A stretch of 64,000 bases of DNA from Lytechinus pictus (lineage: Eukaryota): positions 19,718,001 to 19,782,000 of the forward strand of contig NC_087250.1 of NCBI RefSeq assembly GCF_037042905.1, in the 5' to 3' direction. Made by a program: the position numbers and the translations under genes. Below are positions 1 to 60,036 of the stretch, piece by piece. The notes below the pieces were generated by a model, which saw only the letters and a program-made list of their open reading frames with translations, was not told the DNA's origin and did not search any database. The stretch's first letter is position 1. Each line of letters starts with the position of its first letter.

Positions 1-224
1 AACTACGTAGATTACGTCATTCTCTACCATCATGCAAATTTTCGTTGTGATCGTGCAATCCACGGCCGAGATCTTATAAGGGGGGGGGCAATAATACCCC
101 CCCCCCCCCCCCGGGAATGACAAGAATCAAAATACCCCGGTAGATTTAGGATTTAAAAAATTGTCAGTACGGTATATCATCGAGGATCTACATAGTCAGA
201 TAGTAGTACATGTAGATCTGGTAC

Positions 225-1540
225 CAGTGGCGTAGCTACGGGGGGGCCTGGGGGGCACGTGCCCCCCCTGAGATTTGGTGTGCCCCCCCAGAAAAAAATG
301 GCAGAGCAAAAAAAAATTTAAAAAGGGAGAAAGAAGAAAAGAAAAAAGGAAAAGAAGAAGAAAGACAGAAGAAAAAAAAGAAGAAGAAAATAAGAGGAGG
401 AAGACGAGTGAATGAAATAATGTAATTAAAAAACAAATCTCTTCATGTTACTATATAAAATTTTTGCTGGCGCTTCGCGCCAGAATTGCCTGTTCGATGA
501 GATTCATATCTTGCTCGATAGGCTGATATGGAGCAAATTTTGAAGTCAATATGCAACAAATATTTTAGCTCGGACATCAAGCTTTTATTATTATTTTTTT
601 CATTTACAAATTTAAGTGCTCTGTAAAATGTCCGTTTTATGGTCTACATATATCAGCATTTTAAGCTCAAGCTGCTTGGTCACATTGTTTGATTTGCGAA
701 GTTCATATTGTCTACGTGTATTCCATAATGTTCCATTAAACAAATGTATTCAGAATGCCCAGATTCTATAGGTCTAAATCTACAACACGCGCGATAGCCT
801 GCATGTTCTTTATTTAAAATGTACATGTACTTAAATTATCCAGTTTCACATCAGAATATCAATAATTGTCTGCTCACGCTTCACGATCGCATTATTAATG
901 ATACCCCATTGACTATATCCTATTTATGATTTACAAAATGTGAATAGAGTGTCCCGCTTTTAGGTCTAAAATCTCAATTTCTTCCTCTCGCGCTTCGCGC
1001 TCGCATCAATTTTTTAGTTACATACCTATCCCATTTATTAATACAAAAAGTGCTTAGAATGATCATTTTTTAGGTCGGAATGTAAAAAAAATTTGCTCGC
1101 GCTTCGCGCTCGCATTATTGAAATATATACCGTCTTCGTGGGTAACTGTAAGCAGTCCTTAACAGGTCCCTTTTCGATAATGCTAGAACAGTTGATAAAA
1201 ATTTCTGTTCGCGCTTGGCGTTCGCAGTACCCATCTAGTTACATACGAATCTTGTTCAGGATCACACATAACATCGCCCAGAAAATTAGATTAAAAATAC
1301 ATGAAAGTAAAAAAAAAAATCGCTCGCGCTTCGCGCTCGCACTTTTTATTAGGCTTATGAGATTATTTCATGTTTATGTCGTTTTATAAGAATAAAACTA
1401 AGAAGTGACTGATATAGGTGAAGATAATTTCGCGCCCCGTTCCCTATTGACGAAAGTCGGATCCGCCCTTGTGACACATACGCACACACCGGAAAAATGG
1501 TCGGTGCCCCCCCGGGAAAAAAATCCTAGCTACGCCACTG
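225..1540. mobile_element. Non-autonomous hAT-like element (CAGTGGCGTAGCTA termini) with internal GCGCTTCGCGCTCGC repeats
   Basis: TIR cagtggcgtagcta / tagctacgccactg; exact 8-bp TSD TCTGGTAC at 217-224 and 1541-1548; no ORF. Confidence 0.85.
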
Positions 1541-1679
1541 TCTGGTACAGTTACATATATAAACTAAACTTTGTGAAATCTTGAAATCTACACTGAAAAA
1601 TGTTCAAACTGAAGATCACCAACACAGATAAGAGCACGTGGGACAGTAACCCAGAGAGCTCCCGCCCGCGCAGCGGGCG

Positions 1680-2141
1680 GGAGCCCAGAAGCTCACAGTG
1701 TATTCTACCATTGCCACCGAACAAGGGTGATTTATGGTCTAAATATTTCTCCAAATGAATTGTGAAAACAAAAAGTGTACAATTACCACGATTATATGGA
1801 TGAAGGTCTAGCGAGTGGCAGATTCCTGACATCTGAGCACAGTCTGGAACCTCAAAAAAACCAAAAGTTCTCTCCTTCTACCCAGTCTCGATCGGCCGTT
1901 TTGTTACGATTTTTAACAAAAATGGCCGATCGAGACGGGGTAGAAGCAGAGAACTTTTCGTTTTTTTGAGGTTCCAGACTGTGCTCAGATGTCAGGAATC
2001 TGCCACTCGCTAGACCTTCATCCATATAATCGTGGTAATTGTACACTTTTTGTTTTCACAATTCATTTGGAGAAATATTTAGACCATAAATCACCCTTGT
2101 CCGGTGGCAATGGTAGAATACACTGTGAGCTTCTGGGCTCC
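1680..2141. repeat. Long near-perfect palindrome (foldback), arms ~225 bp, centre ~1910
   Basis: ggagcccagaagctcacagtg... mirrored by ...cactgtgagcttctgggctcc; ORF track shows mirror ORFs (1775+/2046-, 1832-/1989+). Confidence 0.9.
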
Positions 2142-5100
2142 GGCTCCCGCCCACGTACGTGCATAGCGCCAACTTAATGTGTTCCGCCATCTTGCTTGTT
2201 GGTTGCCGATAAAATGCGCATTTTCAGATTTTTTAACGCTCAGTTATTATCCATGACTGAAACATTGACCAATCAAAAACTAAGATTCTACAAGAAATAT
2301 GAATATTCATATACGAAAGTATAAACATAGATAATTCAGTTTTATGTGAAATTTAAACCCAATACTTCAAAATATGGTTAGTTTTATGTCTCTAAAATGA
2401 CCCTTAAAACCAGAATTTTATTAGTAAAAAATAAAGGTTTTCCCAAGTTGCCATGGTAACGCGGTCTGAGATATAAAAGCTTAGCAAACACTTCATTTCA
2501 GTGATCGAGGATGTATTTGTTTACGGTATACGTCTACATAAATTATAACATTTTTTTCCAGACCATGGATGAACTTTCAAAAAGAGACATTTTAGGCAAG
2601 TTTTTACGATTTCCGGCAATTTTCTGACACAGGCACTTTGAAGAGGTAATTTTTACAGAATTAGAAGAAGACATCATGGATTTTCCTAATTATCACGACG
2701 GATATGCAACTTACTTGTAAACAAATCAAACAAAGTCTATGATACATTTTCGATAATACAAAAAGAGACATTCAAGTCTCTGATTGAGAGCCGCAGATTG
2801 AACATTCGCACGGCGCAATGGTAGCGTTTTCGCCGAATTCGTCGGGGCGAAAACTCCAAGAGAGCCGTACCACTCACCAGTCCCGAACGCTGCGCTGTAT
2901 GTTTGATGATTTAACTGGTGCCATTTCGTGCTTATAAATTTGTTTTTTCTACAATGCCACTATCTCATTAAAATTGTTTGTCATGATAACATTGGAAATA
3001 TTATCGTTTAATGGCCCAAAGGATCGACTGTAATAAAAGATACTTTGAAATATTGTCAGAGAGTGATTAGTTAGGTGATGTTTATGGTCAGAATTTAGTC
3101 ATGGCTTCGGGTGAACTTACGCGAACGCGGTCACTTGCTCACGGGGCGAGTCGGCCTGGCCCTTTGGTGGAAGGCCGTTAGGCAACGTGCAGTGCAGCTA
3201 GAGCAGAGTTGGGGAGTTATAGGTATAAAAATGCTTTGAAATAAGTAATCTGCAAATATTTTTGTCTTATCCCTTTGGATTACTTAGATAAGAAATTCAA
3301 ATTCTCAAAGTTTAAATCAAATTTTAGACAGTGACAACAAAGAGTGGTGCTGTATGGGGGGGGGGGGGGTGGGGTCTTGCATGCCCCCAATTCACGAACA
3401 AGAAAAAAAAGGAAAAGGTAAGAGAATCTTGCGAAATTGTTCAATTGGATTTTTGTAACCAAAAGTCAAAATTATGCTTATGTCGCTTGCTTGCAACTAT
3501 ATATTTTATACATTTTGCCTGATACGCCATATCGTAGTACCCTCAATTATTTTCACTTGTTACGCCACTGACACGACTGATATAACATCTACTAGTTTAT
3601 GATAACATTATTTGGTTGCGGGATCAAAGCATCAGCTATATAGCTAAACATTTATACTTTATGCCTGTTCAACTTCCAATACAGGTTTAGGCCTGTATTT
3701 ATGAGATGTTAAGATCTATGGGTGCCTTTATTATTTTCATTTTCAATTAAAACAATTATTAATTATGTATTAATTTAGTATTAACCTCGATGATACATTT
3801 TATTGTATTAAATCGTACAATTTCTGTTGTATTAAGCCCCTTATTAAGCCCTTTTAAAAACATGCTCAGTAGCAGACCCCCCCCCCATATATAAAGACAA
3901 TAGAAGTGTATATAGAATTAATTGAACCCCCCCCCCTTATTGAGGACAAAATGAAAAAAAAATACTCAAAATAATCGACCGCCCCCCCCCCCCTTTGACG
4001 AGGCAGCTGTCGGTGGCCTGATGTCTTCATTGACTTCTTTTTGCTTGTAAAAATAATATTAAAGAAATAGGGGCTACTCTAAGTGTCCCCTGTGAAAATT
4101 GATTTGGATCTGCAAGTGCATGAGGCTGCGCCCCCTCCAACGTCATAGCTACCCCATATCTTTAGGTTCTAGCTCTCATATTTTTCAGCTCCCTGGTTTT
4201 TTGGAAGAAAAAAAAACGAGGCGAAAGAAAAGAGTGAAATAAATGAAATACGATTAATCAAAATTTGAGTTGTTTGAAAGAATTATACTTATCAGAGAAA
4301 CTAAATTAAATTCTACAACCATGAAGAATAACAGCAATCTTGATAAATTCTGTTTTTTTTTCAAAATCAGAACCAATCAACCTTTTTCTGATTATTCTGT
4401 CACTTTCCATATTTTGGAGAAAAAAATAAAAGTGTTCATTGACGCCCTGTACTGCATGATGAAACTGTATCCCCACTCGGCCCTCGTAACCCCCCCCCCC
4501 CTCTCTCTCCCTCTCCCCCTCCCCCACCACAATGCCCCTTGCTCATTTCTCTTATCTCACCTTGACCTTAATTAATTAATCTTAACTATTTGGCGGTACA
4601 GTCAAACGTGACTGGTCGCCATCATAGTTTCATCCCCAACAAACAAGGAACAAACAATAACAATTCTGTTTTTCGACCCAACATCATTCCTTTCAATACG
4701 CGTAAGGCTATACGTGGGCATGCACAAACAACGTGGGTTAACAAAAACTGACCCGCGTTTGGACTAAAATTGTGATTAAAATAAAAATGTTATAAATATG
4801 AAAAAAATATGTGTATAATGAAGGATATCTGATAAACGGAAAAACATCAATCGCTAATTCATAAAAATGCTGGAAAAGATTTGACAGAGGTTTTTAACAA
4901 CGGTAATCAAGGGGAATTAGTGTATGGGTGAATGGCGTTCGAGCTTTAGCCGGAGAGGGCGCGGGCCAAATCTGCCTGAATCTGGCAATATGGCGTCGTC
5001 CATTAAGCTGACGTTAGCCAGCGGCGACTGCACGTACGTGCGCCCGCTGCGCGGACGGGAGCTCTCTGGGTTAGTGGGACAGTTATTATTGCTCTGATTA

Positions 5101-5329
5101 ATGTCGGCCCGACGCTTGCCTTGGCTCGAGTTGACCCGAATCCTGTGCTTTTTTTGCTTATTTCGCAGCAATTACACAATTTCTTCCAGAATCCTTTGGC
5201 ACATACGGCATATTATTTATAAATATAGACAGACACTTTGGTGGTCATTTCATTGGATTCTGTACGAACTCATTTTGATATCGTTACCACAACTGGCATT
5301 TACCTAGTTAAAGTGTGCACTGTGTCTTT

Positions 5330-5760
5330 GCAGACTTGGGCCCTGAGCCCACCAGCGCAGCCTGTCCTATTCAGCATGCCGGCGCTCGGGGCAGCCACCC
5401 CGGCCGGGCAGTGTCAGTGCACGAAATCTAAAGCCAAAGGCAAGCCGCGCTCCGAAAAGAAAATCTTAGAAGATGGTTATCTAACTTACTGTTTGGTCTC
5501 CTGCGAATGCCTTCGAAGTCGTTATCCAAATCTGAACCTTGTTCTTAAAGTAGTAGAACTATTATTAACGGCCATCTTCGTCGCACTTAATTCTCGATCC
5601 AAAATTAGGCTGCAACGGCGAAAAACGAGGGCATTCCTTTTTCAAATTAAATGGTTGCGACTAGACTGCGCCAGTTGCATGCAGTGCAGCGCGCATGCGC
5701 AGGCTCGACGCCCGGCGGCGAATTAATTCTGCGGATCATGAATTTTTTATAGGGGGTGAG
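5330..5760 (-). promoter_or_regulatory. Putative promoter plus non-coding first exon module (inverted homologue of 8610-8657 + 10095-10500)
   Basis: NRF1-type palindrome GCGCATGCGC at 5691-5700, CpG-rich, GTAAGT donor on minus strand at 5484-5489; alignable to the copy near 10.1-10.5 kb. Confidence 0.5.
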
Positions 5761-6109
5761 CCCGGGGGGCGTGCATGGGGGGGGGGGGGGGTGAGCTAAC
5801 TAGATAGGGGGTTTGCATGACACCGGGGCATGACACCACTTGCGAAAAAAAAGTTTTAAAATAGATACAAACTTCTTTGACATATAAAGCTTCCTCTTGT
5901 TTGGTTTGGTTGGCAACCAGTTAAGAAATGATTATTTTTGCCACTGCTTTTGAAACTTTTTTTCTTTGAAGAATTATATACTTTACCTAAAATAAAAAAA
6001 TTCTGTACTATTTTTTTTAGTTTTACTTTTCCTTTTATAAGTAGAAATAGCCTTGCTAACATGGCAAGGTTGAAAAAATGGCAAAATAGTATGTGGCTTT
6101 GAAATTAAA

Positions 6110-6598
6110 CTTGTAAATTTCCTCGTCGTTGATTGGTAAAATTTGATGTCATAATCACGTCGTAATGTGGTCATATGAAAACGCAAATTTCTTTGTCGTT
6201 GTTTGCATGGTAAATAAATGATGTCATATCACGTCATAATGTGGTCATATAAAAATGCAAATTCATTTGTTGCAGATTGGTCGATAAATGACGTCGTAAT
6301 CACGTAATAATCTGGTCATATAAGAAAGCAAATTTACTTGTCGTAAATTGGTCAGTAAATGACGTCGTAATCACGTCATAATCTGGTCATATAAGCGAGC
6401 AAATTTACTTGTCGTAAATTGGTCAGTAAATGACGTCGAAATCACGTCATAATCTGGTCAAATAAAAATGCAAATGAAAGTTGCCATTCTAAGTCGTCAA
6501 AATGACGTCGTAAGAACGTCATAAATACGACGACATGACGAGTATTACCACTTTACGATCAGTTAATGACGTCATTACGACCGTGTCTGCTATCAGGG
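6110..6598 (-). mobile_element. Terminus of a CCC-ended (EnSpm/CACTA-like) element with ~62-bp subterminal GACGTC/CACGTC repeats
   Basis: Ends ...gtctgctatcaggg; repeated aaatgacgtcgtaatcacgtcataatctggtc units; other terminus not found in window. Confidence 0.55.
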
Positions 6599-6599
6599 A

Positions 6600-7410
6600 T
6601 ATTGCATTCAGTGTGGAGTTTCAGATCAGAATATCAAAAATTTTCTGCTCGCGCTTTGCGCTCACATTATTAATGTAAGAATATATCCAATTACCCATCA
6701 TTTTCTTGATTTTCAAAACATGAATAGAATGTCCCAATTATAGGTCTGAAATCTCAATTTTGTTTTCGCTCGCTCTTTGCGCTCGCATCAATTGTATAGT
6801 TATATACCTATCCTGTTCATGATTAGAAAAGTGCTTAAGATGTCCTGTTTTTAGGTCTGAAATCTCATTTTTAATTCCGCTCGCGCTTCGCGCTCGCATC
6901 AATTGTATATTTATATACCTATCCTGTTCTTGATTAGAAAAGTGCTTAGAATGTCTCGTTTTTTGGTCTGAAATCTCAATTTTGTTTCCGCTCGCGCTTC
7001 GCACTCGCATCTTATCCTGTTCATGATTGCAAAAAGTGCTTAGAATGTCCAGTATTTAGGTCGGAATGTCAATTTTTTCAGCTCGCGCTTCGCGCTCGCA
7101 TTATTTGATTGGTGATATATGAATCGTCTTAATGAGTAACTGCAAACATTCCTTATAACACTTCCCTTTCGATCAGACCAGAGCGTATATAAAAAATATC
7201 TGCTCGCACTGATCACGTTCGCAGTTATTATTTGTTACATACGCATCTTGTTCAGGACCACAAACATTGCTCAAAATATTCAATTTTTCAGGACAAAATA
7301 CATGATTTCCCCCCAAAAAAATAGCTCGCGTTTCGATCGCGCTCGACTTATCTCATTATATATCTATGTTCTTTTATAAGAAGAAAGCTAAGAAGTGACT
7401 GTCATATATT
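6600..7410. repeat. Partial copy of the GCGCTTCGCGCTCGC repeat family (as in 225-1540)
   Basis: Aligns by eye to ~845-1415 (cagaatatcaa...; ttttaggtctgaaatctc...; ataagaa..ctaagaagtgactg). Confidence 0.75.
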
Positions 7411-7743
7411 ATATGTATATATATATATATATGTGTGTGTGGGGGGAGGATTGGTTGGTGTGTGTGTGGTGCCCTTAGAGGTGTGTGTGTGTGTGTAATT
7501 ATGGAAAATTCAATTATTGTGTCCCCCCCACCTTTGAGGAGAGATTTCAGCACCCCTACTGAAAAAATCGTTCCCAGGTCCCTTACGAAAATGTCGTGTG
7601 GTATATCTGTGTGGTACCCGGCTTTACCACACGAATTACCACATGAATGTAGGTTACCACATGAACATCTGTGGTAATTTTCCATATCCTTGTGTGGTAA
7701 CGTCAGCTGGTGGCTGTGGTAATTTGTTGTCTATGTGGTACTT

Positions 7744-8570
7744 CTGTGGTAAATCAAAATTACCACATGAATGCATGTTACCTCATATGCCATTGTGTGG
7801 TAATGTAAATTCAAATATGTGGTATTTGTGTGGTATTGTTATATTTCTGTGGTAAATCAAAATTACCACATGAATGCATGTTACCTCATGATGCCATTGT
7901 GTGGTAATGTAAATTCAAATATGTGGTATTTGTGTGGTATTGTTATATTTCTTTGGTAAATCAAAATTACCACATGAATGCATGTTACCTCATGATGCCA
8001 TTGTGTGGTAATGTAAATTCAAATATGTGGTATGTGTGGTATTGTTATATTTCTGTGGTAAATCAAAATTACCACAGGAATGCATGTTACCTCATGATGC
8101 CATTGTGTGGTAATGTAAATTCAAATATGTGGTATTTGTGTATTGTATACTTCTGTGGTAAAACAAAATTACCACATGAATGCTTTACCTCATGATGCCA
8201 TTGTGTGGTAATGTAAATTCAAATATGTGGTATTTGTGTGGTATTTTTATACTGCTGTGGTAAATCAAAATTACCACATATGAAAGCATGTTTCCACATT
8301 AGCCCATTGTGTGGTAATGTAAATTCAAATATGTGGTATATTTGTGGTGTTATGCTCTGCGGTAAATCAAACTTACCGCATGAATGCAATACCACATGAT
8401 GCCATTGTGTGTCAATTCAAATATGTGGTATTTGTGTGGAATTATACTGCTGTGGTAAATCAAAATTACCACATGAAAGCATGTTACGTCATAGCCCATT
8501 GTGTAGTACTGTCAATTCAAATATGTGGTATTTGTGTGTTATTGCCCTTCTGTTGAAAATCAGAAATACC
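7744..8570. repeat. Tandem array, ~103-bp unit, about 8 copies, TGTGGT-rich (left subterminal repeat)
   Basis: ctgtggtaaatcaaaattaccacatgaatgcatg unit recurs at ~7744, 7847, 7951, 8053, 8153 and onward. Confidence 0.9.
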
Positions 8571-8657
8571 ACACAAAAAAAGTTTTCACACCCATAACTT
8601 AGACCCCCCTCAGCTCACCCCCTATCAAAATTAAAAATTGATTCGCCGGAGGGGGGG

Positions 8658-10094
8658 CAGGGTGACCAGACGTCCCGTATTTCCCGGGATTGTCCCGTAT
8701 TTTGCTTCTTTGTCCCGGCGTCCCGACAAACCCTTCCCGGGACGCCTATTTGTCCCGTATTTCAGAATATTGAACAAAATATATTTAAAAGTGACGAATT
8801 TTCATTAAAATAACCAACAGATGACGAAGCAGAGACAACAATAAAATCGATAAATAAACTTTTGCAAGGTGATTTTCTTGCTAACCCAATCGAACTGGCC
8901 TCCTGCCTTTGTGTGACAGGCTAGTACTAGCAAGGCATGTAGGATCGGAGCAGATTCTCTACACCAAACACAATGAAACATGCCAAAATAATCACAAAAT
9001 CGGCGGGAAATTTGTATAATTATATTATGGGTTCTCAGATTACTGATTTGGGGATGTAATCGGAGGAACAAGTTATTGAGTTTTCATAACTAGATCTAGT
9101 TGTTTCAACTTTCGTTTTGAGTCTTGTTCTATATAATGCCGCGATGTTTCATCTAATTTTTAAGTAAAAAAAGAATCACTTTGAAATTTTATTCATTTCT
9201 AAAACATTTTTTTAAAATATATTTTAAAAACACCAAATATCATTATGATTTTTGTTAGATGATTGGAATTTTTTGCTTGAAGTTTGAACTTTTCTATCCT
9301 TCTTTCTTCATCCTTCTATCCTTCCTGCTTGCCCGTTTTTGTTCCATCTATCTCTATTTCCTATTTGCCTTTCCTGATCCTTTCTCTCTCTCTGTGTTCA
9401 TTTTTTTTCCTCCCTTTTTCTTACCCGTCTTCTTTATCAAATTTCCTTTTTTTTATTTCCTCCATTCTTTCTTTCAACTTTTTTCTTCCCCTCCCTTCCT
9501 CTCCTTTTTATTTTAATTCTTTCTCTTCTTCCATTATGTTTTCACTCCTTCCTCACTTCATTCTTCCTCCCTCTCTTTCTTTCATTCTTTATTTCATTTT
9601 TCCTTATAATTCTTTCCCTTATTATTTCTCTCCCTCCCTTAATTCCTTCCTTCCCTCCTCCCTTACTGTTTCCTTCTTTCTTTGTTTCTTTCTTTCAAAG
9701 AATGAAGAAAACATTTTTCTTTCCTTCATTCTTTCTTTCCTCCTCCTTTTTCTTACTTTTTTTCTTTCTCTCCTTTATTTTGTCTTTCACACATGTATTC
9801 TTCTTCCATTTCTTTCTTTTTCTCTCTTTCTGTATTCAATTCAAAGAATGGCGGAAACTTTTTTTCTCTTTTTTATTCTAACTTTCTTTTATTCTTTTTT
9901 TATTTTTTCCTTCATTTTCCCCTTAATTTTTTTTCTTCTCTTTTCTTTCGCCTTTTCTTTCTTTCCTTCATTCTTTCGTTCACCCTCCCTTCCAATTTTT
10001 TTTAAGTTTTTTACAGGTGTAACACTGTGTAGCCTTCTTTGTTGATCTTTTTTCGATTGTCCCTTATTTCATTTTGTGAAATCTTGTCACCCTG
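8658..10094. mobile_element. hAT-like non-autonomous element (CAGGGTGAC termini) containing a CT-rich tract
   Basis: TIR cagggtgaccaga / tcttgtcaccctg; inserted in a poly-G run; removing it restores continuity with the 5330-5760 homologue. Confidence 0.7.
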
Positions 10095-10297
10095 GGGGGG
10101 GGGGGGGGGCGGCGACAGGCTTGCGCATGCGCACTTACCGCCAACATTTGAAAAGAATACCGTTTGCGTTGCGTTGCAGTTTATTGAGCTCGATCGAGAA
10201 GTGGGACGAAGAAGGCCGTTAATAATTCAACTACTTAAAGAATGCGGGTTAGATGTGGACGACTTCGAAGACATTTGCAGTAGGCTAAACAGTAAGT
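10095..10297 (+). promoter_or_regulatory. Putative promoter plus non-coding first exon inside the 10.8-kb element
   Basis: GCGCATGCGC at 10123-10132; donor CA|GTAAGT at 10292; both conserved in the inverted copy at 5.3-5.7 kb. Confidence 0.5.
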
Positions 10298-10472
10298 TAG
10301 ATAACCATTTTCTATGATTTTCTTTTCGTAGTTTGTTAAATGCCCCGGCTTGCAACTAGCTAAAGATTTCGTCAATGAAAATGACATGACACTGGCAATC
10401 CCATCCTGTCTAACCGGGCGCTCGCCCGGCCCCGAGCGCCTGCTCGCTGCTGTGATGTGGACCACTGGCTGG

Positions 10473-12487
10473 TGGTCTCAAGTCTGCACACAGTCACAGC
10501 ACACCTAAACGATTTGAGTTTAGATTTAACGTGAATTTCCTGTTATTTTACAAAATCTTTCAATTGATGATGTTCCTTGTATTCTTATGAGTAAGTGTGC
10601 AAAAAGTCTCATTAAAAATTAAGAGAAATAATTGATTTTCTTGGGAAAATATCTCGGCCAGTCATGGTCATTTACTTGCATTTTGATTGAACAAAATTAT
10701 TAAGTTAGTGCCGGTACTGGTACGGTAGCCCGACAGCAGATCAGAATGACATGAGAAATTGAGAATGAACGTTAAGAATATTACTTAGAAATTAGCGGGA
10801 AAATTACCACCCGGTATGTGGAACAATTCATTTTATTTTTATGATAAAAATTTCTTGATAACTATCGGGAAACGGTATCATGTAAAAATGAAAGGCTACG
10901 TCGGACCCGGGTCGCACCGCGGACAATTCAGTTTAACATGCATTGTAGCGTATAGCATGCATGTCCAGCTCAGCTAGGCGCGCTGGCAACGCAGGCTAGT
11001 GTGGCTGCTCAGCTCAGGCTTGGCTGGCTGGCTAGCCGGCTGGAAGTGGAAATGCGCCAGTTTCTATGCATGGATATTTTTCCGGTCATCAATAAGAAGA
11101 TCGTAGTTTGTTTGTTGCCGAAATGATTCTGAAACATCCTTTACTTTTGAGGATTGATGATGAATGATGCAACAATTATTTCCGATGACTTTTCCCCACT
11201 TTTTATGATTTTTTTTTGCCCGTGACGCATATAGAGCTTGTGGAATTTACGTATGTCGCATGCGACGCGTGTTCTACACTGGCGAGAACGTTGCTGGTAG
11301 GATGGGGGTCGGGTGTCCGGACAGTTTTATCTTTTTGAAGCCTTCCTTTTATCTTTGGATTACACTAAAAATATGAATTCAATACTTGTTATCATCTTCT
11401 ATTTTGTTCTTTATAATATTTCCTAATAATTTGTACTAAAAATTGATGGAACTTTGCTTTTTTTCCAAATGACTTTCTAAATGACACACAACCTGTCTGG
11501 ACACACAACAACTGGGTAATACTAATAGTGGCCGATGTCTGCGCACTTATTCACATGATGCGAAGATTTCGATAAGAAAGCACAGTCACAGAGGCTGCAT
11601 TTTGAGGACGTCACATGAAATGCCCTGGAAAGAATTCCATATGCAATTCCAATGTACCCCCCACCAACATGATAAAAAATAAGATTGTTGAGACTTAATT
11701 CCATTCCAGTTCGTTCACTTCAGATTTTTCTATAATTTTTTTACCCTTGTTTTGGCACCTTAGTTGGGACTTGAGATCACCTCGTTTTATTTGCAGTCAA
11801 GACCTGTTCCTGCTATGCTAGCAAGAAGTGCTGATGCCGGAAGGGGTATTTTAACGATTATCAGCCAATAGTTCGCCTAGACTTGACTCACAGACCCTTG
11901 AGTAAATAAACCGATGTCTATGGACAATTACACACACTAGATACATCCATACATGCTCGAAATTTGACGGAATAAAGCCATATTTTAGTATGTATTTCCA
12001 CTCCTAGTACTATCCACTACCCCATCATATATGTTCTATATTGTGCTAGATATATTATTCTGAACCTTCTTCATGTTTTTATTTTCAATTTTAGTGGGGT
12101 TGCATATGGAACTCTTGCCAATGCCCTAAATTCATTATTTTCCAACCATTTTAAGTCAGATTTTTTATGAATAGATCTGTTTATGACATTCCAGGAGAAA
12201 GAGAGGGAGACCCAAAACTACTTGTCCTGGCATCACATTTGAGGAGGAGATGAAGTCGGTGAATATGACCTAGCCCGGGGGAGTTTCCAGAAGACGGCCC
12301 AGAACCACTGGCCGCCAGGAGTGGAGGTCCTTTGTTGTTGCTCTACATGTCAGGAGGCATCGGGCAGTAGGTAAGACTAAGTACAGTAGGCTCTTTCAGG
12401 TGTAAAGTTTATTTTTTGTTTGGAGTCGTTGCGTATCTTCCATTATCAGAATCGCGCAGATTCGGATGTGCGCAATCTTAGGGCACC
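10473..12487. mobile_element. Longer, interrupted relative of the MITE at 37548-37990
   Basis: Three blocks (10510-10665, 11535-11628, 12427-12487) match the 37.5-38.0 kb element in the same order. Confidence 0.6.
12190..12385 (+). mobile_element. RTE-clade LINE 3' remnant
   Basis: Frameshifted translation RKRGRPKTT...FEEEMKSVNMT...KTAQN...WRSFVVALH, typical of RTE ORF C-termini. Confidence 0.65.
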
Positions 12488-13844
12488 TTATCTGTCAATG
12501 GTCCTAACTGTACTTAGAGGACTCTGTGATGATATTTTTAACATTTTTACATTGTACAAGGGGTATTTTCATTCACGGAGCTAGACAAGTCTCTGTTCCC
12601 TGTAGAACTTGGTACACAAAGATGGATTTCCCTTAAAAAATCCACCTTTCCCACAATAATTTTGGGCAAACATTTGATTTTTCCAATTTGTAAGCCTTTT
12701 GTTATCTAAATATACAAAATTAAGGCTTAAGAAATGTTACTTTTAAGCAGGTAAACATTTTGAAGGATCACTTGCTTGCAATTCCCAAGCTATATAACAC
12801 AATGACATGACCTTTAAGTCGAGAGACGTCCATATGCAAGAAAATACAGAGGGAATTGGTGCAAATGCATAGCTGATTGTGCTAGTACTAGATTCCTGGC
12901 TGACGTGTATCGGTTTGGACGTTCTAATGACAAGTTTAGAGTGTAATTTGGCGCTAATAGAGTTTCACAACGGTTGGCATGATTGAGGTTAACATTTTAT
13001 TTTTTTTTCTCTCTTTTGCAGCCCTGGTAGAAGCACCATCTTGATACCATCATTCAAACTCTCATCAGCTGTATCATTATAGGTGGACTAAAAGAACAAT
13101 ATTCATGCAGATATAATGGTGTGTACAAATTTATCCTTTGTGGAAGGTATTTTTTATAATTATTGTGTTATTTTGATTATTTACATGTGCATGAACATGA
13201 GATGCAGTTAAATAATTTTGATTTTGTAACCACTCTGATACAAAGCTTGTCTAATAATTAATGCCCTTACAAGGTTCATGCTGTTGTCAATTCAAACGTA
13301 TTAGATAGGCATAAGTGAAACATCAACATCTGACATGCATTTATTATCACATCAGAAGGGATCTTCGTTATGTGAAATTGGCAACTTGTAATTTCTTATT
13401 CAAACTGATGGAATTATCCCATAACCATTTAAAACACATTTAAAAAAAGCATGAATTAAAATCATGTTTAATTAAAATAAATATTTTTTTTTTAACTTTA
13501 AAATGTCCTTCCCTATACAGAGATGGTTTGGAGGTGCAGCAGATCTTGAGGGCATCAAGCCCCCCTCCCCCGACCTGACTTTACATGTTAATATTTGAAG
13601 TATAAATATGGAACAAACCCCACATTGTTTTTTAATCATTTTTTAAAAAGTTTGGAAATTGATATCGAAACCATGTAGTTTTTAATGAATATTAAATAGT
13701 TAATGCAGGAAAGGCTTTTATGTTTATCTTCTTCTGTTATTTATTGCAGATGCCTTAAGTTGAAATGGAAGGTGTCCTGAATCTGCACCCATTCATCTGG
13801 TTTCGTAACTCCTTTCATAGTGCTATTGGAACCTGCTCCCTACC

Positions 13845-14380
13845 AGTATAACATCAAACAGATTGGAAGAATAAAGGCCAATGGGAAGTGCCTTTTATAT
13901 TTCTACTTGCCACAAAGCAGTCCATGGTTTAGCGCTATCTAAACTGGACTATTGTAATGCTCTTCGTGCTTGAATTAGGGCGATCTGGACTGACTGCATA
14001 TAGTACAGAATGCTGCATCTATTGTGCCATTTGCCATACGCCAACTTCGCTGGCTGCAAGTCAAGGAAAGGATATACATGAACATCAGTGTCCGTCTCCT
14101 GATTTTCAAAGTCATTGACAGAGATCCAGATTACATGTTTTATAAGGAATCCCTTGTGCGTCATTTTCATTCTAGGCGCACTTGCCTTTTTATTTTTGTG
14201 ATCATTACGCACCTACGAATTACATGTAGCTACTGGTGATGCAACTTTCTCCACTACTGCTCCAAGGCCGTGGAATTAGCTCCTTCCTCTCCTCCAGTTG
14301 TCAACAACCTTGGATCAATCCAAATACAATTTGAGAAGACCTACCATCTTGATCTTTGCTCTGTACTTACAACAATACTG
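13845..14380 (+). mobile_element. L2/CR1-type LINE ORF2 C-terminal remnant
   Basis: Broken frames read YNIKQIGRI, LSKLDYCNAL, VQNAA, IRQLRWLQVKERI..LLIFK; typical L2 post-RT motifs. Confidence 0.75.
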
Positions 14381-15715
14381 TCACTGTCTGGTAATTTGAA
14401 TTTTTTTAAATCTCATGCGCTTTGTATCTCGCAAAATAACGTGTTGTGTAAAAGCGAACATGCATTGAGGTCAAGTTTAAGGGTAACCATGGATATTGCC
14501 TTTTATTACTTTTGAACAAAACTGAAAAATTCATCCAAATTAGACAAGGGATAATAAAGTAATGTATGACATTCTAACCTCTGCATTATTTTGGTGAAAG
14601 AGCTCTAAGCATATATATGCAAGTAGCAAGCTGATGATGTCATACTGACGTACATTGTACATGTACACGTATCCCCAACTTATTATTTTGTATATAAAAT
14701 TGTGCATTTAATTTTGTTTACCAAGAATGAAACAAATCGGATTGTAAACTGTATTGATGTGACTTACCTGTATTGATTATTGCTGGAAGTTCTTTTGCTA
14801 CATGGGATTGGAAGACATACTTATTACACACATGAAGTAAATTATTATTTTATCTGGTAACATGAGAACAATAAAAATGTGGGCATGATATCATAAACTT
14901 ACATGTATCTACTTGCATGTGTTGATGACCAATATTTTTGTAATTATTTTTTTTTAAATTTTATCTGATTTTGATAAAATTTTCACTATTTTGCATGGTA
15001 AAAATTACTTTATTTTAGATTATGTTGAGCCCGTATCATATACAAGTACAACTTTAAAGATAAATTACCAGTTGTAGTAACAATCTTAAAATGAGTTCAA
15101 ACAGAACCCAATAGAATTACCAGCAAAATATAAAAGACATGTGCCATAATTAATTATAGCTCGGGAAGAAAATGTGTAATTGCTGAGAAATGAGCAAAAT
15201 AAGCATGTAATTCTATCCAATGTCAGGTATTTTTCAAATCAATCATAATACACTGTCCTGTCCCACATGTTCTTTTCTGTGTTAGTGATCATCAAAATAA
15301 TTAATTTTAAGTTCAAAATTAGTGATTTTACAAAAATACAAGCTTACATTAATGTACCAGATCTAGAGATTATGTACAATATTTTGACAATTTCTCATGA
15401 AATAATTGTTTGCTGCAACTGCTGTCTTTTTAATACGTTTAAGTGATAGTGTAATACAACCACAAACTTTTCTTAAGAATTAATGTACATGTATGATTCT
15501 TTCACCCAAATTTACATGCATTGATACTGTTGACTACTTGCCAAAAGTTCCTGCTAAAAGCCTTTTTTAACGATGTACATGCTTTTATAGACGACCTGCC
15601 AAAACATTGTATTGTATTATATTCAAGGTCCAACCAAAAAGAGATGAATAAAATGTTTGAAGGAAATTGAAATTAACTTTAAAAATGATAGAGCTCTGTC
15701 AATGCAGTATTATTA

Positions 15716-16006
15716 CAGGGTTCCCACAGTCATGGAAAATCCTGGAAAAAAATTGGTCATGGAAAGTCAGGGATATGTGAAAAGTCATGGAATTGCATTT
15801 ACCTCTTGGCTATGACAGCTTTCTAGTTTTTTATGTCTCACAACTCTCATACTCTGTGATTATACTCTACTATTATAATTGGTGTTCATGATCATAACAT
15901 GTCTGATTTTGTAAACTGTGCCAGAAAGGAATTAAGTCATGGAAAGCAGCAATTTAGTCATGGAGAGGTCATGGAATTCTGTTTTCAAATTTCTGTGGGA
16001 ACCATG
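15716..16006. mobile_element. hAT-like MITE with repeated GTCATGGAA motifs
   Basis: Termini cagggttcccacag / ctgtgggaaccatg; TSD not clear. Confidence 0.55.
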
Positions 16007-16086
16007 AATAGGTTTGTGCACTTGACACAGTGTGCACTACAGATGAACTTTGTAATGCCATGATATAAACCAGTACAATATCTTAA

Positions 16087-16808
16087 AGGAAAATAAAAAC
16101 CAAAATATAATACCACATGATACCATTGATAAATACAGGACAATGAAAATGAATCCACTCATATACCCCCAATCCGATGTCCCAGTATGGAGTACCACCT
16201 TTTCAAAGTTGGCATCTTCTGGTACAAAGTCTATGGATGGGGATTATTCCGTCAGCGACGAACTACATCTCTAAACGTTTGGGCATTAAATATTCTATTT
16301 CATCGATAATAAATCAAATGTACAGATAAAACTCATAAAATATTAATTAAAATTTGTTTAATATTATATGATAGGTTCAAATTACGACTTGATGAGTTTT
16401 AATGATAAAAATTACACCCTAATCTACGATTTACAAATTGGCAGCGGAAATTGGGGTGTAAATCTTATCATTAAAACTCATCAAATTGTATTTTGAACCT
16501 ACCATATATTAAACAAATTTTAACTAATATTTTTATGAGTTTTATCTGTACATTTGATTTGTTATTGATAAAATAGAATATATAATGCCTAAACGTTTAG
16601 AGATGTAGTTCGTCGCTGATGTAATAATTTCCTAACTAACCCCGCGAAAATGGCGACCTCCATCCAGAAACTTCGAACCATACTGTAAGAGGCCAACTTT
16701 GAAAAGGTGGTACTCCGTAATTGGATTAGGGTATGAGTGGATTCATGTTGATTGTCCTGTATTTATCAATAATATCATGTGATATTATGTTTTGGGTGTT
16801 ATTTTCCT
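16087..16808. mobile_element. TTAA-flanked foldback MITE (Kolobok-like), palindromic over almost its whole length
   Basis: ttaa|aggaaaataa ... ttattttcct|ttaa; arms mirror each other to a centre near 16445. Confidence 0.85.
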
Positions 16809-17494
16809 TTAATTCAGATATTACATGCCAGGGTATTGTCCTAGTTTTCATTTTCTCCAAATACATATTATCATCTCTCGTCTATTTCTACTTGCCCTTC
16901 AGCCTTGAAGTAAACTTGGGATAATTATGCATTTTGTTATACGCAATTTTGAGTACAGTGCACTTTGCCGCAGCTACTTATATGATATTACCTATTGTAG
17001 ACACATCCTTATGTTTTGTTCATTTTCTTAAAAACGATTAAGAGTTTAATCATTTTTGTCTTTAAGCATAAAACAAAGAGTAAATCAGTCCATTCTGTAT
17101 GTGTGACCTGCAAAAAAACTACAATGGTCGTTAATTTGGTTTGCTGAAAAGCCAGATAACCTTTGAGGTAACTTTTTAAAGTATTTAGAAGAAATGTATC
17201 TGTTTTAAAAGTATTTATATGCACTGTAACTAATTTCTTTGATAGTTACTATTATGTTACACTGTTTGTACAGTAAAGCAGCTGTTACACAATTTTTGTC
17301 AATATCAAATCTAAACCAGTATTGTAAATTGATGACTCTATGAGCTAAATACCAGTACTTTCTATATCACTTGTAAAATCATTTGTTGTCTGTTCATTGA
17401 AGGTGTTGTATTTTCTTAATCTTATAAAAGTACATAGGGTCATGAACACATTCTACTGCTACCAAAATCATACCCATGATCTGTGATGTATCTA

Positions 17495-18375
17495 ACCAGT
17501 TACCACACACATTGCAACACACCAGTTGCAACATACATTATCATGCATCAGTTATCACACATCTAGTTACCACACACATTTTGGGTAATGACTCTGATGC
17601 ATGGTATTATGTGTATTATGTACAATATGTGTGGTAACTGGTTAGTGTTTACCACACACCATTTACCACACGAATTACCTCATATTTTACCACACACCAG
17701 TTACCACATGCATTACCACACACCAGTTACGTAACTGGTGTGTGGTAGTGTATGTGGTAACGTGTGTGGTAAATCGTGTGTAGTAATGCATGTGGTAACC
17801 GGTGTGTGGTAAAATGTGACGTAATTTGTGTGGTAAGGCATGTGGTAAAATATGAGGTAATTTGTGTGTGGTAACCCGTGTGGTAACCGGTGTGTGGTAA
17901 AATGTGAGGTAATTTGTGTGGTAAGGCGTGTGGTAAAATATGAGGTAATTCGTGTGGTAAATGATGTGTGGTAACGCGTGTGGTAACTGGTGTGCGGTAA
18001 AATGTGAGGTAATTTGTGTGGTAAATGGTGTGTGGTAATGCATGTCGTAACTGGTGTGTGGTAAATGGTGTGGTAAATGTCGTGTGATAATCTATGTGGT
18101 AAATGGTATGTGGTAAAAATTGTTACCATAAATTAATCCCTTGTGTGGTAAATGTTACCATATATTAATCCATTCATGTGGTATTCCTGTGGTAATGTTG
18201 TGTGGTAAATGTTCCAATTTACCACAGGACAATACCACACGACATTACCACACATTACCACACAATACCACAGGACATAAAGACATAGCATTACCACACA
18301 ACAATATATGTGGTAATCGTGTGGTACAGTCCTATGGTAATTATATGGTATTACCACAGGACATTTTTGTAAGGG
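17495..18375. repeat. TGTGGTAA/TTACCACA-rich right subterminal array of the 10.8-kb element
   Basis: Dozens of TGTGGTAA or TTACCACA motifs in both orientations, ending at the TIR. Confidence 0.85.
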
Positions 18376-18546
18376 GTCCCTGTTATATAGGCCCTATATA
18401 ATCGATTAAAAATCTTGATCACCACCAGCATGACTATGGTCCAACCATGGTCCCAGCTAGCAAGCTGACGTTGGTTGGGCCAATGCGGGGTGCCGATGTC
18501 GGCCACATTCGGCGAATATCGGATTCCATAGACCAATGAAAATTAG

Positions 18547-18806
18547 AATACTACGTACGTACGTAATAATACTGCGTACGTACGTAATAATACTGCGTAC
18601 GTACGTAATAATTATCACGTACGTACGTAATAATACTGCGTACGTACGTGATAATACTGCGTACGTACGTAATAATTATCACGTACGTACGCAATAATAC
18701 TGCGTACGTACGTAATAATTATCACGTACGTACGTAATAATACTACGTACGTACGTGATAATTTTTTTTTTTTGGTTGTCAAAAATGTCCGGTTTGAGGC
18801 TTCGTA
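18547..18806. repeat. CGTACGTACG tandem array ending in a probable transposon terminus (...ggtttgaggcttcgta)
   Basis: ~10 units of ~22 bp built on the palindrome cgtacgtacg. Confidence 0.75.
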
Positions 18807-18825
18807 GTTCTCGAATCAAAGTTAA

Positions 18826-19408
18826 AGGAAAATGAAACCCTTGAAACCAGCTGAATCCATATCAAAGAGAAAAATCAAAGAAACACATTGTTGAAAGTTT
18901 GAGGAAGATTGAATGAACAATAAGAAAGTTATGAGCATTTGAATATTGAGATCACTAATGCCATGTAGATCCTCCCATTGGCAATGCGACCAAGATCTGT
19001 GATGTCACACACGTACAACTCCCTCATTACTTTAGTACATATTTCACTTATATTCTCACTTTTATAGAGTCTGTCACAAGGTGAGGTGTTCTCTTTATGA
19101 GAGGACAAGTACAGAGGTTTCACAACATTATATCATTGATGAATCGTTTGTCATATGATTAGAATGAGCAAAAAGAGATGTTTTGGGGTATATTTTCAGT
19201 GTCCAAAAGGGGAGAGTTGTTCATCAGTGACATCTAGATCTTGGTCGCATTGCCAATGGGAGGATCTACATGGCATTAGTGATCTCAATATTCAAATGCT
19301 CATAACTTTCTTATTATTCATTCAATCTTCCTCAAACCTTCAACAATGTGTTTCTTTGATTTATCTCTTTGATATGGATTCAGCTGATTTCAAGGGTTTC
19401 ATTCTCCT
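18826..19408. mobile_element. TTAA-flanked MITE (Kolobok-like) with ~180-bp TIRs, ~125 bp upstream of the BET1L ATG
   Basis: ttaa|aggaaaatgaaacccttgaaa ... tttcaagggtttcattctcct|ttaa. Confidence 0.85.
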
Positions 19409-19534
19409 TTAACTTTTGTGAGAAAGAAACTGGGCATTGAATCAACGTTGCGGTCGGTGCTAATCTACGTGGAATTGAAAACGTAAACACAAATATCGGC
19501 AGCTTGAAATTAACTCACTATTTTCCCTGAAATA

Positions 19535-22500
19535 ATGTCTGACTGGGACTGGGGATCGAAGAAAACAGGTAAATATTTTGAAATTACTGGACTGATTTAT
19601 TCAACTCTATTTACTTTATTGCTTAACAAATAAGTTAATGGAAATCTTTCCTTTATTTTCTTGAAACTCTTCAAACAGTACTGCAACGTGTCCCACACGT
19701 ACAATTTTGTGTTTGTAAACTCTTCATAATCAACACCAGTTTTCTCACTCGTTGACAGATCGATTCCTCATTCCAACTCTTTTCTATATCATATGTAACA
19801 AATTATAGAATAAAGTGCTCAAATATAGGACACTTAAGCATGATTGGACCAAAACAAAAATATAGGCCTAATCATTGAAATATTGAATCAAATGAAATTA
19901 ATCATGTCTATTTGTGGTTGAAAACTTTAGTAGCCTAGTTTTATTTTTTTGTAAAAATCAAATTTTGAAAAAATGTGGTAGGCCTAAATGGAAATTATTC
20001 ACTTATACTACCAGAAGCTTTTTTTTGGCCAAATACAAGAAGTGTAAAGTTGTGCGCCGCGATCAATTTTGGCAATTTAAACTGCGCTCTAGGCCCTAAA
20101 GACTAAACCCCAAAATAATCGCTTGATTGTTGAGAAAACATTTTTTATTTCAGCTGCGCAAATGCCGATTTTGAATTATTTCTATTAATAATTTTGATGT
20201 AGAAATCTGTAAATGATAATTATTTACTTTCCATATGGACCTCTTTCGGCTCTAAATATCGGACGTCTTCGCTTAGCTCCGGGTGGCTTCGTTCTGAAAT
20301 GCGAGCGTGGGCGTGTGAACAGCACGCTTTCCAGTGCAATCGGACGAGATGTCCGATATTTGGGAGGGTGTTGAATTTCCCGCCGTGTGGAAACCCGCGA
20401 TGGCCATTGCAGATCTTTTTGCGATAGATTGAATATGTGTCATATTGGTGGCGATATTTCCTGCGAAAATCACTTCCCCCTTACAAGATTTTTTTTGGTC
20501 ATTGATCTTTTGGAGTTAAAAATTAGTGAGGGTCATAAGAATCTTAACCCCTGGAATAGCTTTTCTGAGCAGCAACCTGGATCTATTGTGTGTGCAGTTC
20601 AACAGTACATGTATCACATGTATGCAAGTCCCCCGCCAGTGTGGATCCCTGTAGTTGAAGTCTTTTTCGTCCAATATTTGGACACTACTCATTACTCAAG
20701 TCATTTACCGGCCAAATCATGGTTTTTGGAACCACTCGTTGATTTGTGCATGTGCACGTGTGTACAAAGTAAATGGAGGTGGAAAATAGGGAACCATGCG
20801 TTGTGACTGAACTATAAAGCGCTGCTGTACGAAGTAAACGGTGGTTCCCAATTTCACGATAATGACCATTTACCCAGTCTGTCCAAATCAGGAAGAAGTA
20901 GATTGAATTTGCAATTCAATATTGGGCCTGAGGCTTTTTAAGCTAATCACTCAGTCTTGGATTTAACCCACTTATTTATTGAACAAGGTTATGATATAAC
21001 AAGGTTAAACTGTTATGATAAAACCTTGTTCTCTGTTGGGACTGTTAGGACTCATCCGTTTTTGTCCGCATGATTTTAGTCGCCAACTTCAGTCCATTTC
21101 AAACTTGTAAAAGATTTTACCCGTCCCTATTGACCTGTGTGTGAATTAATTCCTTGTTATTTTTTTTTAATAGGTGGACAAAACAACCACGGTGGTAAAA
21201 TGAGTACGGAGGACATGCTTGAAGCCGAAAATGACCGAATGACACTCGGTCTAGCAGCTAAGGTCTCAACATTGAAATCTGTGAGTAGTCTATGGGTTCA
21301 TAATCACTTAGGTCTGAGTGGGCGCGTCGTGGTCTAGTGGTTCTGACTCTCGCCTTTCAAACAGAGGGTTGTGGGTTCGAATCCTAGCCATGGCGTGTTT
21401 TCCTTCAGCAAGAAATTTATCCACATTGTGCTGTGCTCGACCCAGGTGAGGTAAATGGGTATCAGCAGCAAGTAATTCCTCAAAAAGCTGTGCGCACCAG
21501 AATCGGTAGACCAGTTTAACCGGGGTAATATAGGAGCGCCTTGAGCACCTAGCAAGGTGGATACGTGCGCTATACAAATCCTATATTATTATTGTTATCA
21601 GATAATCTTATAACATATGGGCTGAATGCATTTGGTCCAATATCAAATTGAATCGCTATTTGTCTTACAGTACACTATCTAATACCATTTAGTCTAATCT
21701 AATTCTTGTGTAGTTAAATGCACAGAGGGCCCAATTTCCACTTGACATTAAGGTCGTTGGTCACATAGGTCGTTGGATGCCAGAAAAGTCCTTTTCTTTA
21801 ATATTTTTTTATGAATCATTTGATCAATCAGCTTTGGCAGACTGGCAGTGATACACTCAACTACAACTATGGAAAGCCAGCAGCATCAACAACTAAAATG
21901 CATGTTTGTTCAAAATATTTTCCAGATATGACGTATTCATCTTCACGCTTTCATATGTTTTTTGGCAATTCATCATGCTCTACGTATACAAAAGGCCAAT
22001 GTTTTGAATTTATCAGCTTATTTGGCACTTTACCTTTCAAAACTGTAAGAATAATATCGTAAATAGTTTTCTTTACCAGTCATGCATGGATACAGAACAC
22101 GGTATACATAAAAAAGGATGCAATCAATGTAAACAAAATCTTGACATTTTTTGCTTTTCATAATTTAACACCAACTTCAACCATGGTTTTAGTTAAACCA
22201 GACTTCAGAATAATGACCTTTACCTTTTTTCTTGTTTTCTTTCAGCTTGCCAAGGATATGGAGAATGACACAAATGACCAAAATGTTTATCTTGATGGAA
22301 TGGTAAGACAAGAGATATGTTTGATCTGGAAGGGGGGGGTAGAGTTAGGGACAGTCACCAAAGACACATCCATGACCAGGGGGGTGTTTCACAAAGTATG
22401 ACTAAAGTCGCACTTAAATGCTGACGCGTGCATGATATGCAACGCGCGATCTTATTGATAGATACACAGTAGTGCGCATCCTCTTGTCATGATCTGACCA

Positions 22501-23364
22501 ATGCGGTCAAGCCTTTTATACTGTACGCAACTCGGTATTATGTATATGTGACTTTAACTCACGCTTAAATCTTTGTGAAACACCCCCCATATTTAGGTAT
22601 CATTTTTTTAATATGATACACATTATTAAGTGAAAAAAGTCCTTGAGCTGGGCTATATCAGTTTATACTTGTTTAGGGGGGTAAAAGGAATACAGAAAGT
22701 ATTCGGAAGTAAATTATGTAAATAGAGTATTAATTTGGCAAGTTCAGAAGTAGAACACACCTAGAGAGGTTTAGAAGCATGTGGTGGCCATTAAAGACAG
22801 ATTTCCTTGTAGACTGGTGGCTGCTACCTGGCCCTGGGAAATGGGGATGCTAGGGGTGCTGAATAACCCCCAAGATTTTCCTACGGGGTGTTGCATGTGT
22901 TATTTTCCATAGGCAGCACCTCCTGAAACTCTGGAAGGTGTGACCCAGATGACCTTCATTTTGTAGTGAAACCCTTTTTTTTTGCTTTTCAAATTTACAT
23001 CAGCACCAACACTAAAAAAAAATCGTTCCCAGGCCCTGGGCCGCTATTCTGTTCATGCCCACAAGAAGGAATGACAATTTTACTCTTTACATCATCGATA
23101 ATGCTACAGGTCTTTTTCAAAGACACCAAATGAAAAACAGAGGTGAACTGTTTCACCCAAAATGTGTCTTTGTGTTCCTTTTTTCCTATCCAGGGTGATG
23201 ACTTCTCCAGCTCCGAAGGCCTCCTAAGCGGAACTGTAAAGCGGCTGGACGGCATGCTGTCGTCCGGCCGCGGCAATCGCAAGCTCATGTGCTACCTGAT
23301 CTTAGGACTCGTTCTATTGTTCGTCTTTGCGTATCTCCTGTTATCTCGAGTGACTGGGCACTGA
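19535..23364 (+). CDS. BET1L: BET1-like Golgi Qc-SNARE (GS15), 122 aa; exons 19535-19568, 21174-21280, 22246-22302, 23194-23364
   Basis: All introns GT-AG with consistent phases (1,0,0); protein MSDWDWGSKKTGG...EDMLEAENDRMTLGLAAKVSTLKSLAKDMENDTNDQNVYLDGMGDDFSSSEGLLSGTVKRLDGMLSSGRGNRKLMCYLILGLVLLFVFAYLLLSRVTGH has a SNARE coil and C-terminal TM and resembles vertebrate BET1L. Confidence 0.93.
21320..21592 (+). mobile_element. tRNA-derived SINE in BET1L intron 2
   Basis: A box tggtctagtgg, B box ggttcgaatcc, central cacattgtgctgtgctcgacccaggtgaggtaaatgggta (CORE/Meta-like), 3' gcgctatacaaat plus (TAT)n tail. Confidence 0.85.
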
Positions 23365-42037: not shown

Positions 42038-42349
42038 GATGAGTTCTTGCCGTCTGAAGCACCCAACGAAATCTGTCAAAATCGAAAAAAAAAAAAAAAA
42101 ACACATCTACACCTAAAATGTTATAAGACAAAAAGTATCTGTGTGTTGATAACATTAATAATGCATATTAATAGGTAAGCTTTATAGTGCGCCAAATCCA
42201 TTCTGCAGAGTGCCCAAGGCGCAAAAGAAAAAAAAAGAAAGAGGGTGAAAGGAAGTATACACATTTATGTAATTATGAAACAGGGAAGTGGGAATTTAGA
42301 AACTCTTACTTCCTTCATGTCCTTGATAAACAGAACGAGCTATCATTAA

Positions 42350-59970: not shown

Positions 59971-60036
59971 CCCTTAAGACCACTTTTCACGCCCTGCTAG
60001 CAGTTCCCACGCATAATCTTTTTCACCATTTTCGAA

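Follow-up and report, generated by a model that had tools for sequence, protein, structure and literature searches.

A 64,000-bp stretch of the genome of the sea urchin Lytechinus pictus (NC_087250.1, positions 19,718,001 to 19,782,000; hereafter the window) contains two arrays of the motif TGTGGTA that look like separate satellites, and we find that both are the subterminal arrays of a single transposon. The element occupies positions 7580–18375 (10,796 bp), and both of its termini are fixed exactly. Taken together, the evidence makes it very probable that this is one non-autonomous transposon of the TRC type—i.e. a CCC-ended element of the CACTA/EnSpm (CMC) group—whose insertion in a hAT-like repeat tip duplicated the dinucleotide GT. 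As such, it is a further member of a known animal group; we found no paper on this transposon family, which may be listed in Repbase, Dfam, or paper supplements, all outside our search.

Termini and subterminal arrays

The boundaries of the element, and the two parts of the repeat that it splits, are as follows.

7578–7579: left copy of the target-site duplication (TSD), GT, read from the sequence at the boundary
7580–7603, + strand: left terminal inverted repeat (TIR), 24 bp, starting CCC; 22/24 against the right end and 22/24 against the end on metagenome contig L001
7604–8580: left subterminal array, with TGTGGTA 30 times forward and 12 times reverse; mostly 8 copies of a 102-bp unit (87% matches)
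17491–18351: right subterminal array, with TGTGGTA 28 times forward and 14 times reverse; periods 12, 26, 38, and 88
18352–18375, − strand: right TIR, 24 bp; 22/24 against the left end and 24/24 against the L001 end
18376–18377: right copy of the TSD, GT, read from the sequence at the boundary
6599–7577, + strand: host hAT-like repeat, body and most of the 3' tip, split by the element; 70% to the hAT-like copy at 916–1416, the tip matching 23010–23038
18378–18382, + strand: final CCCTG (5 nt) of the host repeat, left beyond the element, as seen in the tip comparison with its paralog

The leftmost 24 nt and the inverted rightmost 24 nt match at 22 positions, with background identity beyond; the tips begin CCC (CCCTT), and a GT dinucleotide abuts both ends externally. 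Because both arrays have the motif in common, all 1,319,901 position pairs between the two array regions were scored in the inverted comparison. A total of 71 pairs reach at least 19/24, and 22/24 is attained by the outermost pair alone, in agreement with the original prediction that the arrays end in matching inverted termini. Fifteen of the 16 outermost nt, all outside the TGTGGTA motif, match between the two ends. The motif is found 42 times in 7580–8580 and 42 times in 17491–18375, whereas the 8,910-bp interior has a single copy and the remaining 53 kb has 6. The two arrays have different periods and the same strand bias, and are not mirror copies, and one of the two differences in the left TIR also appears as a motif variant within the right array. 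A second, inner terminus for either array, the finding that would have broken the pair apart, is absent from 6,000–20,000 when up to 4 mismatches to the 16-nt end are allowed.

The insertion site leads to the same boundaries. Deleting the element with one GT rebuilds the hAT-like tip so that it lines up with the intact copy at 22827–23038, which is complete and flanked by an 8-bp duplication (7/8); this bears out the earlier claim that the outer flanks rejoin into a repeat end. When the rejoined junction is compared without gaps with the reversed 5' end of this paralog, a 2-bp duplication fits best (11/18, vs 7, 9, and 7 of 18 for 0-, 1-, and 3-bp models), a modest margin that depends on a single paralog whose own 3' end is 1 nt short. 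The sequence GTCCCTG occurs at 3 of the 128,000 strand positions of the window, and chance completion of the host tip is therefore unlikely. A search of 3,000–7,580 for the 5' end of the host repeat accompanied by a matching 8-bp duplication gave nothing. A complete hAT-like non-autonomous element, kin to the host repeat and flanked by a perfect 8-bp duplication, is located at 225–1540.

The same end is also present outside the window. Metagenome contig L001 (1,960 bp) carries a 24-mer identical to the right-hand end, with 43 copies of the motif in the 900 bp after it, and its likeness to the window starts precisely at the terminus, its flank being unrelated. The L001 array is 66–79% identical to the right array over longer alignments, and no second end is found within the 1,960 bp. 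At 1260–1550 of this contig an insert that we take to be SINE-like (short interspersed nuclear element) from its general resemblance interrupts the subterminal array of the related end, and such arrays therefore gather insertions elsewhere too. Among other databases, the 24-nt end has no match in GTDB genomes and the 22-nt donor motif none in viral contigs; 12 viral-contig matches to the 16-nt end were rejected as chance, because the motif follows in none of the 12. Of 20 sequencing-run entries listed for 9000–18999, 15 contain this sequence in whole or in part, with shares of 0.34–0.53 of its words in 9 entries from 3 studies and of 0.06–0.10 in 6 entries; no RNA data set is among those listed, and we draw nothing from these shares on copy number, expression, or the empty allele.

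Interior of the element

The interior holds no recognizable transposase, in line with the original prediction. None of the 69 stop-to-stop frames of at least 44 aa has a Pfam match near the curated cut-off; weak matches in 8 of them (E 0.028–0.28) are all far below it and were rejected, and none of 6 read-through frames of 10095–17490 matches Pfam, the T/C-rich part of the hAT-like insert lying outside that scan. A Transposase_21 (Tnp2) gene, as carried by autonomous TRC/CACTA elements, was not found in the element, and an autonomous identity was rejected on this basis.

At least six nested repeats of differing age are found in the body. They amount to 5,950 of the 8,910 interior bases (67%) in our partition, with several borders approximate.

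8658–10094: nested hAT-like non-autonomous element, with 13-bp ends (12/13) and an 8-bp duplication (7/8)
10499–12490: nested repeat resembling a miniature inverted-repeat transposable element (MITE), with further inserts and approximate borders; paralog at about 37554–37990
about 12185–12380: RTE-like tail inside the MITE-like repeat; translated motif, no database match
12491–13749: CpG-depleted body without assignment; strong splice-acceptor-like site at 13022
13750–14400, + strand: decayed L2/CR1-like retrotransposon tail, borders approximate; translated motif, no Pfam match
14481–15340: nested repeat starting after TTAA, right border loose; matches 5146–5301 and 1570–1646
15716–15996: small nested CAGGG-ended MITE-like repeat; a duplication was sought and none found
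16087–16808: nested foldback flanked by TTAA and enclosing a smaller one at 16243–16628; arms with 132 identical and 18 mismatched positions, and 104 and 8

The hAT-like insert and the TTAA foldback named in the original prediction are thus both found, and the RTE and L2 elements it also named are presumed from C-terminal motifs in the translations that match no database entry. The repeat that starts after TTAA at 14481 is presumably Kolobok-like.

The non-nested body (2,479 bp) has an observed/expected (o/e) CpG ratio of 0.37 (24 seen, 64 expected), whereas the host flank has 1.14 and the sequences upstream and downstream have 0.97 and 1.24; the depletion shows that this body was methylated for a long time. 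In invertebrates, methylation is found on gene bodies and in some species also on transposons, according to the account in PMC11292947. Given this pattern and the presence of other low-CpG repeats in the window, the depletion is no proof of transcription.

A module shared with a neighbouring repeat

The sequence that the original prediction regarded as unique falls into two parts. About 2.5 kb is without assignment; the rest is a promoter-like module that is also found in a neighbouring CCC-ended repeat.

8581–8657, + strand: start of the module, with the hAT-like insert between it and the main part; alignment to about 5710–5770 in reverse
10095–10498, + strand: main part of the module, with CpG o/e 0.99, a GCGCATGCGC box at 10123, and an exon-like stretch up to a GTAAGT donor at 10292
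5300–6598, − strand: neighbouring CCC-ended repeat end, with its terminus at 6598, unrelated to that of the element, a 71-bp TGACGTC array at 6115–6475, and the module at about 5300–5790

The module is collinear with the reverse of about 5300–5790 over some 450 bp overall, of which some 400 bp lie in 10095–10498. Its core aligns to the reverse of 5440–5605 with 122 identities, 18 mismatches, and 10 gap positions (87% identical), and the severed piece at 8581–8657 aligns with a score of 44, which none of 2,000 random window segments reaches. Both copies are CpG-rich (0.99 and 0.98) and have the GCGCATGCGC box and the GTAAGT donor. The box, which we take to be NRF1-like, occurs three times in the window and two of these occurrences sit in the two module copies; a profile search of the window reveals no third copy of the module. 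The neighbouring end splits the same host hAT-like repeat and stands back to back with the element, about 1 kb apart.

A promoter and first exon just inside the left end is also the placement in En/Spm, and we infer from the sequence that the module is the elements' own promoter with a non-coding first exon. Since it is also found inside the neighbouring CCC-ended repeat, the module looks like part of the element's own body and not like captured host DNA. A coding role for the exon-like stretch was rejected, given the lack of a protein match and substitutions without third-position bias by eye, although both indels between the two copies are 3 nt; the best protein atlas score is 0.87, to unnamed clusters.

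Several results count against the promoter/first-exon assignment. The exon-like stretch has no match at E 0.001 among 1.84 billion proteins, and every frame is interrupted by stops in one or both copies, so that a donor consensus and a motif are the grounds for calling it a first exon. The other end of the neighbouring repeat was not found in 1–6100, and with a single visible end there, the module may instead be an independent repeat or have arisen by local inverted duplication. CpG is equally low in other repeats of the window, at 31–33 kb and 47–51 kb, and its depletion therefore does not single out a transcribed body.

The original prediction described the element as cargo-carrying, a description that this analysis does not support as it stands: 67% of the interior is nested repeats, the module reads as the element's own body, and, with about 2.5 kb left unassigned, we found no captured host gene, nor a parental host copy of any interior segment within the window or by protein search. 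The supposed cargo reads better as a decayed body of the element's own, together with nested repeats.

The two CCC-ended repeats differ in termini and motifs (TGTGGTA, TGACGTC) and have one core in common at 87% identity. On this basis, TRC elements in sea urchins might be modular—i.e. the promoter/first-exon core would be kept while the terminus and subterminal motif, and hence the binding protein, are swapped or replaced—and the 10.8-kb copy might then be a mobile, possibly transcribed non-coding unit that spreads a housekeeping-type promoter. We consider these two proposals, taken jointly, rather unlikely. If true genome-wide, a common core under different ends would bear on how new non-autonomous families switch partners.

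Relationship to known transposons

Our class assignment rests on the ends and the duplication, as for CMC-NA MITEs; non-coding CMC elements are routinely classed in this way (PMC6004678). In the description of PMC1636069, CCC ends together with a 2-bp duplication, verified at paralogous empty sites, make up the TRC signature; the same paper reports TRC transposases in S. purpuratus. The element has CCC inverted ends, a 2-bp TSD that is absent from the paralogous site, and one motif in both orientations. The combination of CCC and 2 bp is known in a flatworm, insects, and Hydra (PMC1636069, PMC4298943), and most CMCT lineages are described as ending CA..TG (PMC12730594), so that CCC marks the TRC subset. 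The non-autonomous CMC/EnSpm type proposed originally is therefore supported, and the CCC ends and 2-bp duplication narrow it to the animal TRC branch.

Described TRC elements—e.g. SmTRC1 of Schistosoma and the Tribolium and Aedes TRCs (PMC1636069), and Spongebob/EnSpm-4N1_HM of Hydra (PMC4298943)—are alike in the CCC core, the 2-bp duplication, and short ends (10–54 bp; 24 bp in our element). Unlike them, the element has no Transposase_21 gene, is 10.8 kb long vs 4.5–9.2 kb, carries motif arrays of about 1 kb on both sides, and has an interior made mostly of nested repeats. A close animal parallel is the zebrafish EnSpm-N49/N49B hybrid, which is also a non-coding CMC-EnSpm element with a 2-bp duplication and a sign of exchange between families; as described in PMC13189230, it differs in its CACTC end, its 2.5-kb length, its proven activity, and its alteration of a host gene.

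In plant CACTA elements, direct and inverted subterminal motifs are bound by TNPA, and the subterminal repeats of En/Spm are cis signals through which deletion derivatives are moved in trans, according to PMC2613891. The same source gives maize En/Spm and soybean Tgm short ends and asymmetric arrays of one motif in both orientations, as in our element, with non-autonomous copies moved in trans and a motif that varies among the families of one genome. The element differs from both in having CCC and not CACTA, a 2-bp and not a 3-bp duplication, and no TnpA/TnpD gene that we could see. A plant-type CACTA identity was thus rejected (CCCTT end and 2 bp, vs a CACTA/CAC end and 3 bp).

Foldback elements, such as FB of Drosophila and TU of sea urchins, are large and non-coding, with arrays at their ends. 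They have long mirror arms and 8–11-bp duplications, whereas only 24 bp are mirrored in our element and the duplication is 2 bp. Identity as a foldback was rejected because the match stops after 24 nt and the arrays differ in period with the same strand bias. The likeness to FB and TU consists of large size, lack of coding sequence, and repeat arrays at both ends (FB4 features are given in PMC8277862). The animal Pack-TIRs treated in the same paper are likewise inverted-repeat elements with an interior other than transposase; they have small captured pieces and an identified parental host copy, and none is identified for our element.

Large animal CMC elements often escape standard tools, as noted in 10.1101/2024.04.05.588311. 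Here, repeat finders would report two satellites and several small repeats where one element exists.

Mechanism, history, and alternatives

By analogy with maize En/Spm, the transposase of an autonomous relative would cut in trans at the 24-bp ends, while a TnpA-like partner, a protein not found here, would bind the repeated TGTGGTA and pair the ends. Animal CACTA/TRC elements are thinly described, and a 7-bp motif present 84 times offers a target for finding the animal counterpart of TnpA. The shared module suggests that the interior may be a remnant transcription unit, with a CpG-rich promoter/first exon inside the left array followed by a CpG-depleted body whose coding exons have been lost. 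Because only the ends would be needed in cis, this interior would be free to decay and collect insertions.

Two points tell against the assignment as a whole: no transposase or partner gene ties the element to TRC by protein, and the 64-kb window has neither a second full copy nor an empty allele, the metagenome contig being the only other site at which the end was found.

We wondered when the element reached its present size, and the evidence tips slightly towards arrival near 10.8 kb over swelling in place. The duplication is intact, the right end is identical to the L001 end, and decay appears to have gone much further in the L2-like remnant than at the termini. The competing scenario, which differs in timing only, is that a TRC-type element of 3–5 kb landed long ago and was inflated where it stands, the 10.8-kb unit never having moved. 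It is the most credible of the alternatives, and we give it a substantial minority chance. The mismatch between the ends (2/24, 8%) is of the same order as the divergence of the nested foldback arms (7–12%), as would suit an element that aged where it stands, and insertions have piled up all around it, with repeats accumulated also at 18376–19534 and upstream. In addition, the foldback at 16.1–16.8 kb shows no CpG depletion (o/e 0.95) and is therefore a late arrival. However, the left-end difference that recurs as a variant in the right array may be a family trait and not decay, and the three observations in favour of full-size arrival also tell against this scenario.

A second alternative is that the ends captured host DNA by gap repair, including a host promoter and first exon, as a Pack-type element would. 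The unmatched 2.5 kb of the interior would suit such an origin, as would the nearby module copy, only 2.8 kb off, given the bias of Pack-TIRs towards nearby donors described in PMC8277862. That copy, however, sits just inside another CCC-ended array and not ahead of a recognizable gene, no host protein match is found, and the captured pieces of animal Pack-TIRs have a median of 224 bp in the same account; we regard capture as improbable.

A placement of the ends in a different superfamily that makes 2-bp duplications, such as Mirage or an ISL2EU/PHIS relative, is more doubtful still. Harbinger-related elements can yield 2-bp duplications, and the CA..TG of most CMCT lineages is missing here (both from PMC12730594), as is a transposase, but CCC with 2 bp has been published as the signature of TRC elements, and PMC2613891 presents long subterminal motif arrays as a CACTA trait.

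Two independent satellites or small elements around ordinary DNA, with ends that match by chance, could explain why the arrays differ in period and why a common motif inflates inverted matches (the 71 pairs above), but this has a negligible probability, as the best pair is the outermost one with its tips matching outside the motif, the duplication and the host tip both fit, inner termini are lacking, and L001 sets an identical boundary.

Neighbourhood

The right end of the element is 1,160 bp from the ATG (19535) of a gene whose SNARE domain is detected in the last exon only, with an E value of 6.9e-05 that is below the cut-off. The distance of about 1.2 kb originally given is therefore correct, and the gene is presumably BET1L, as named there. 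A single excision or insertion of the element would create a structural variant of 10.8 kb, at a distance of 1.2 kb upstream of this SNARE gene. An effect of the element on BET1L has no support. Its putative promoter is 9 kb from the gene, and the intervening sequence holds a palindromic ACGT array (18547–18762) and a young TTAA foldback (about 18818–19416; arms with 176 identical and 5 mismatched positions) that stops some 120 bp short of the ATG. There is also a CCCAG-type end near 18452, between the element and the gene.

Among the other repeats of the window is a CCC-ended element at 31400–33533. Its 144-bp ACCATGGTA array has 97% matches; one right end lies inside, at 33054, and another end of right type at about 33532, and the outer unit is flanked by a direct repeat of 11–12 nt, longer than a 2-bp duplication. 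At 46791–51656 is a 4.9-kb low-CpG element with inverted arms of 235 nt at 98%, followed by 161-bp arrays on both sides. A CAC-ended element at 58908–60275 has 257-nt arms, an inner near-perfect 105-bp hairpin (59750–59970), and differing flanking dinucleotides. Two exon-like open frames (132 and 138 aa) of one further gene, at 33988–35239, have no Pfam match near the cut-off. By eye, the same stretch occurs twice about 2 kb apart, at 53690–54070 and 55690–56600, the second copy being split by a TTAA foldback. Finally, 40715–42106 (− strand) encodes a single-frame G protein-coupled receptor of the rhodopsin family, whose 90% cluster includes Lytechinus pictus and L. variegatus proteins.

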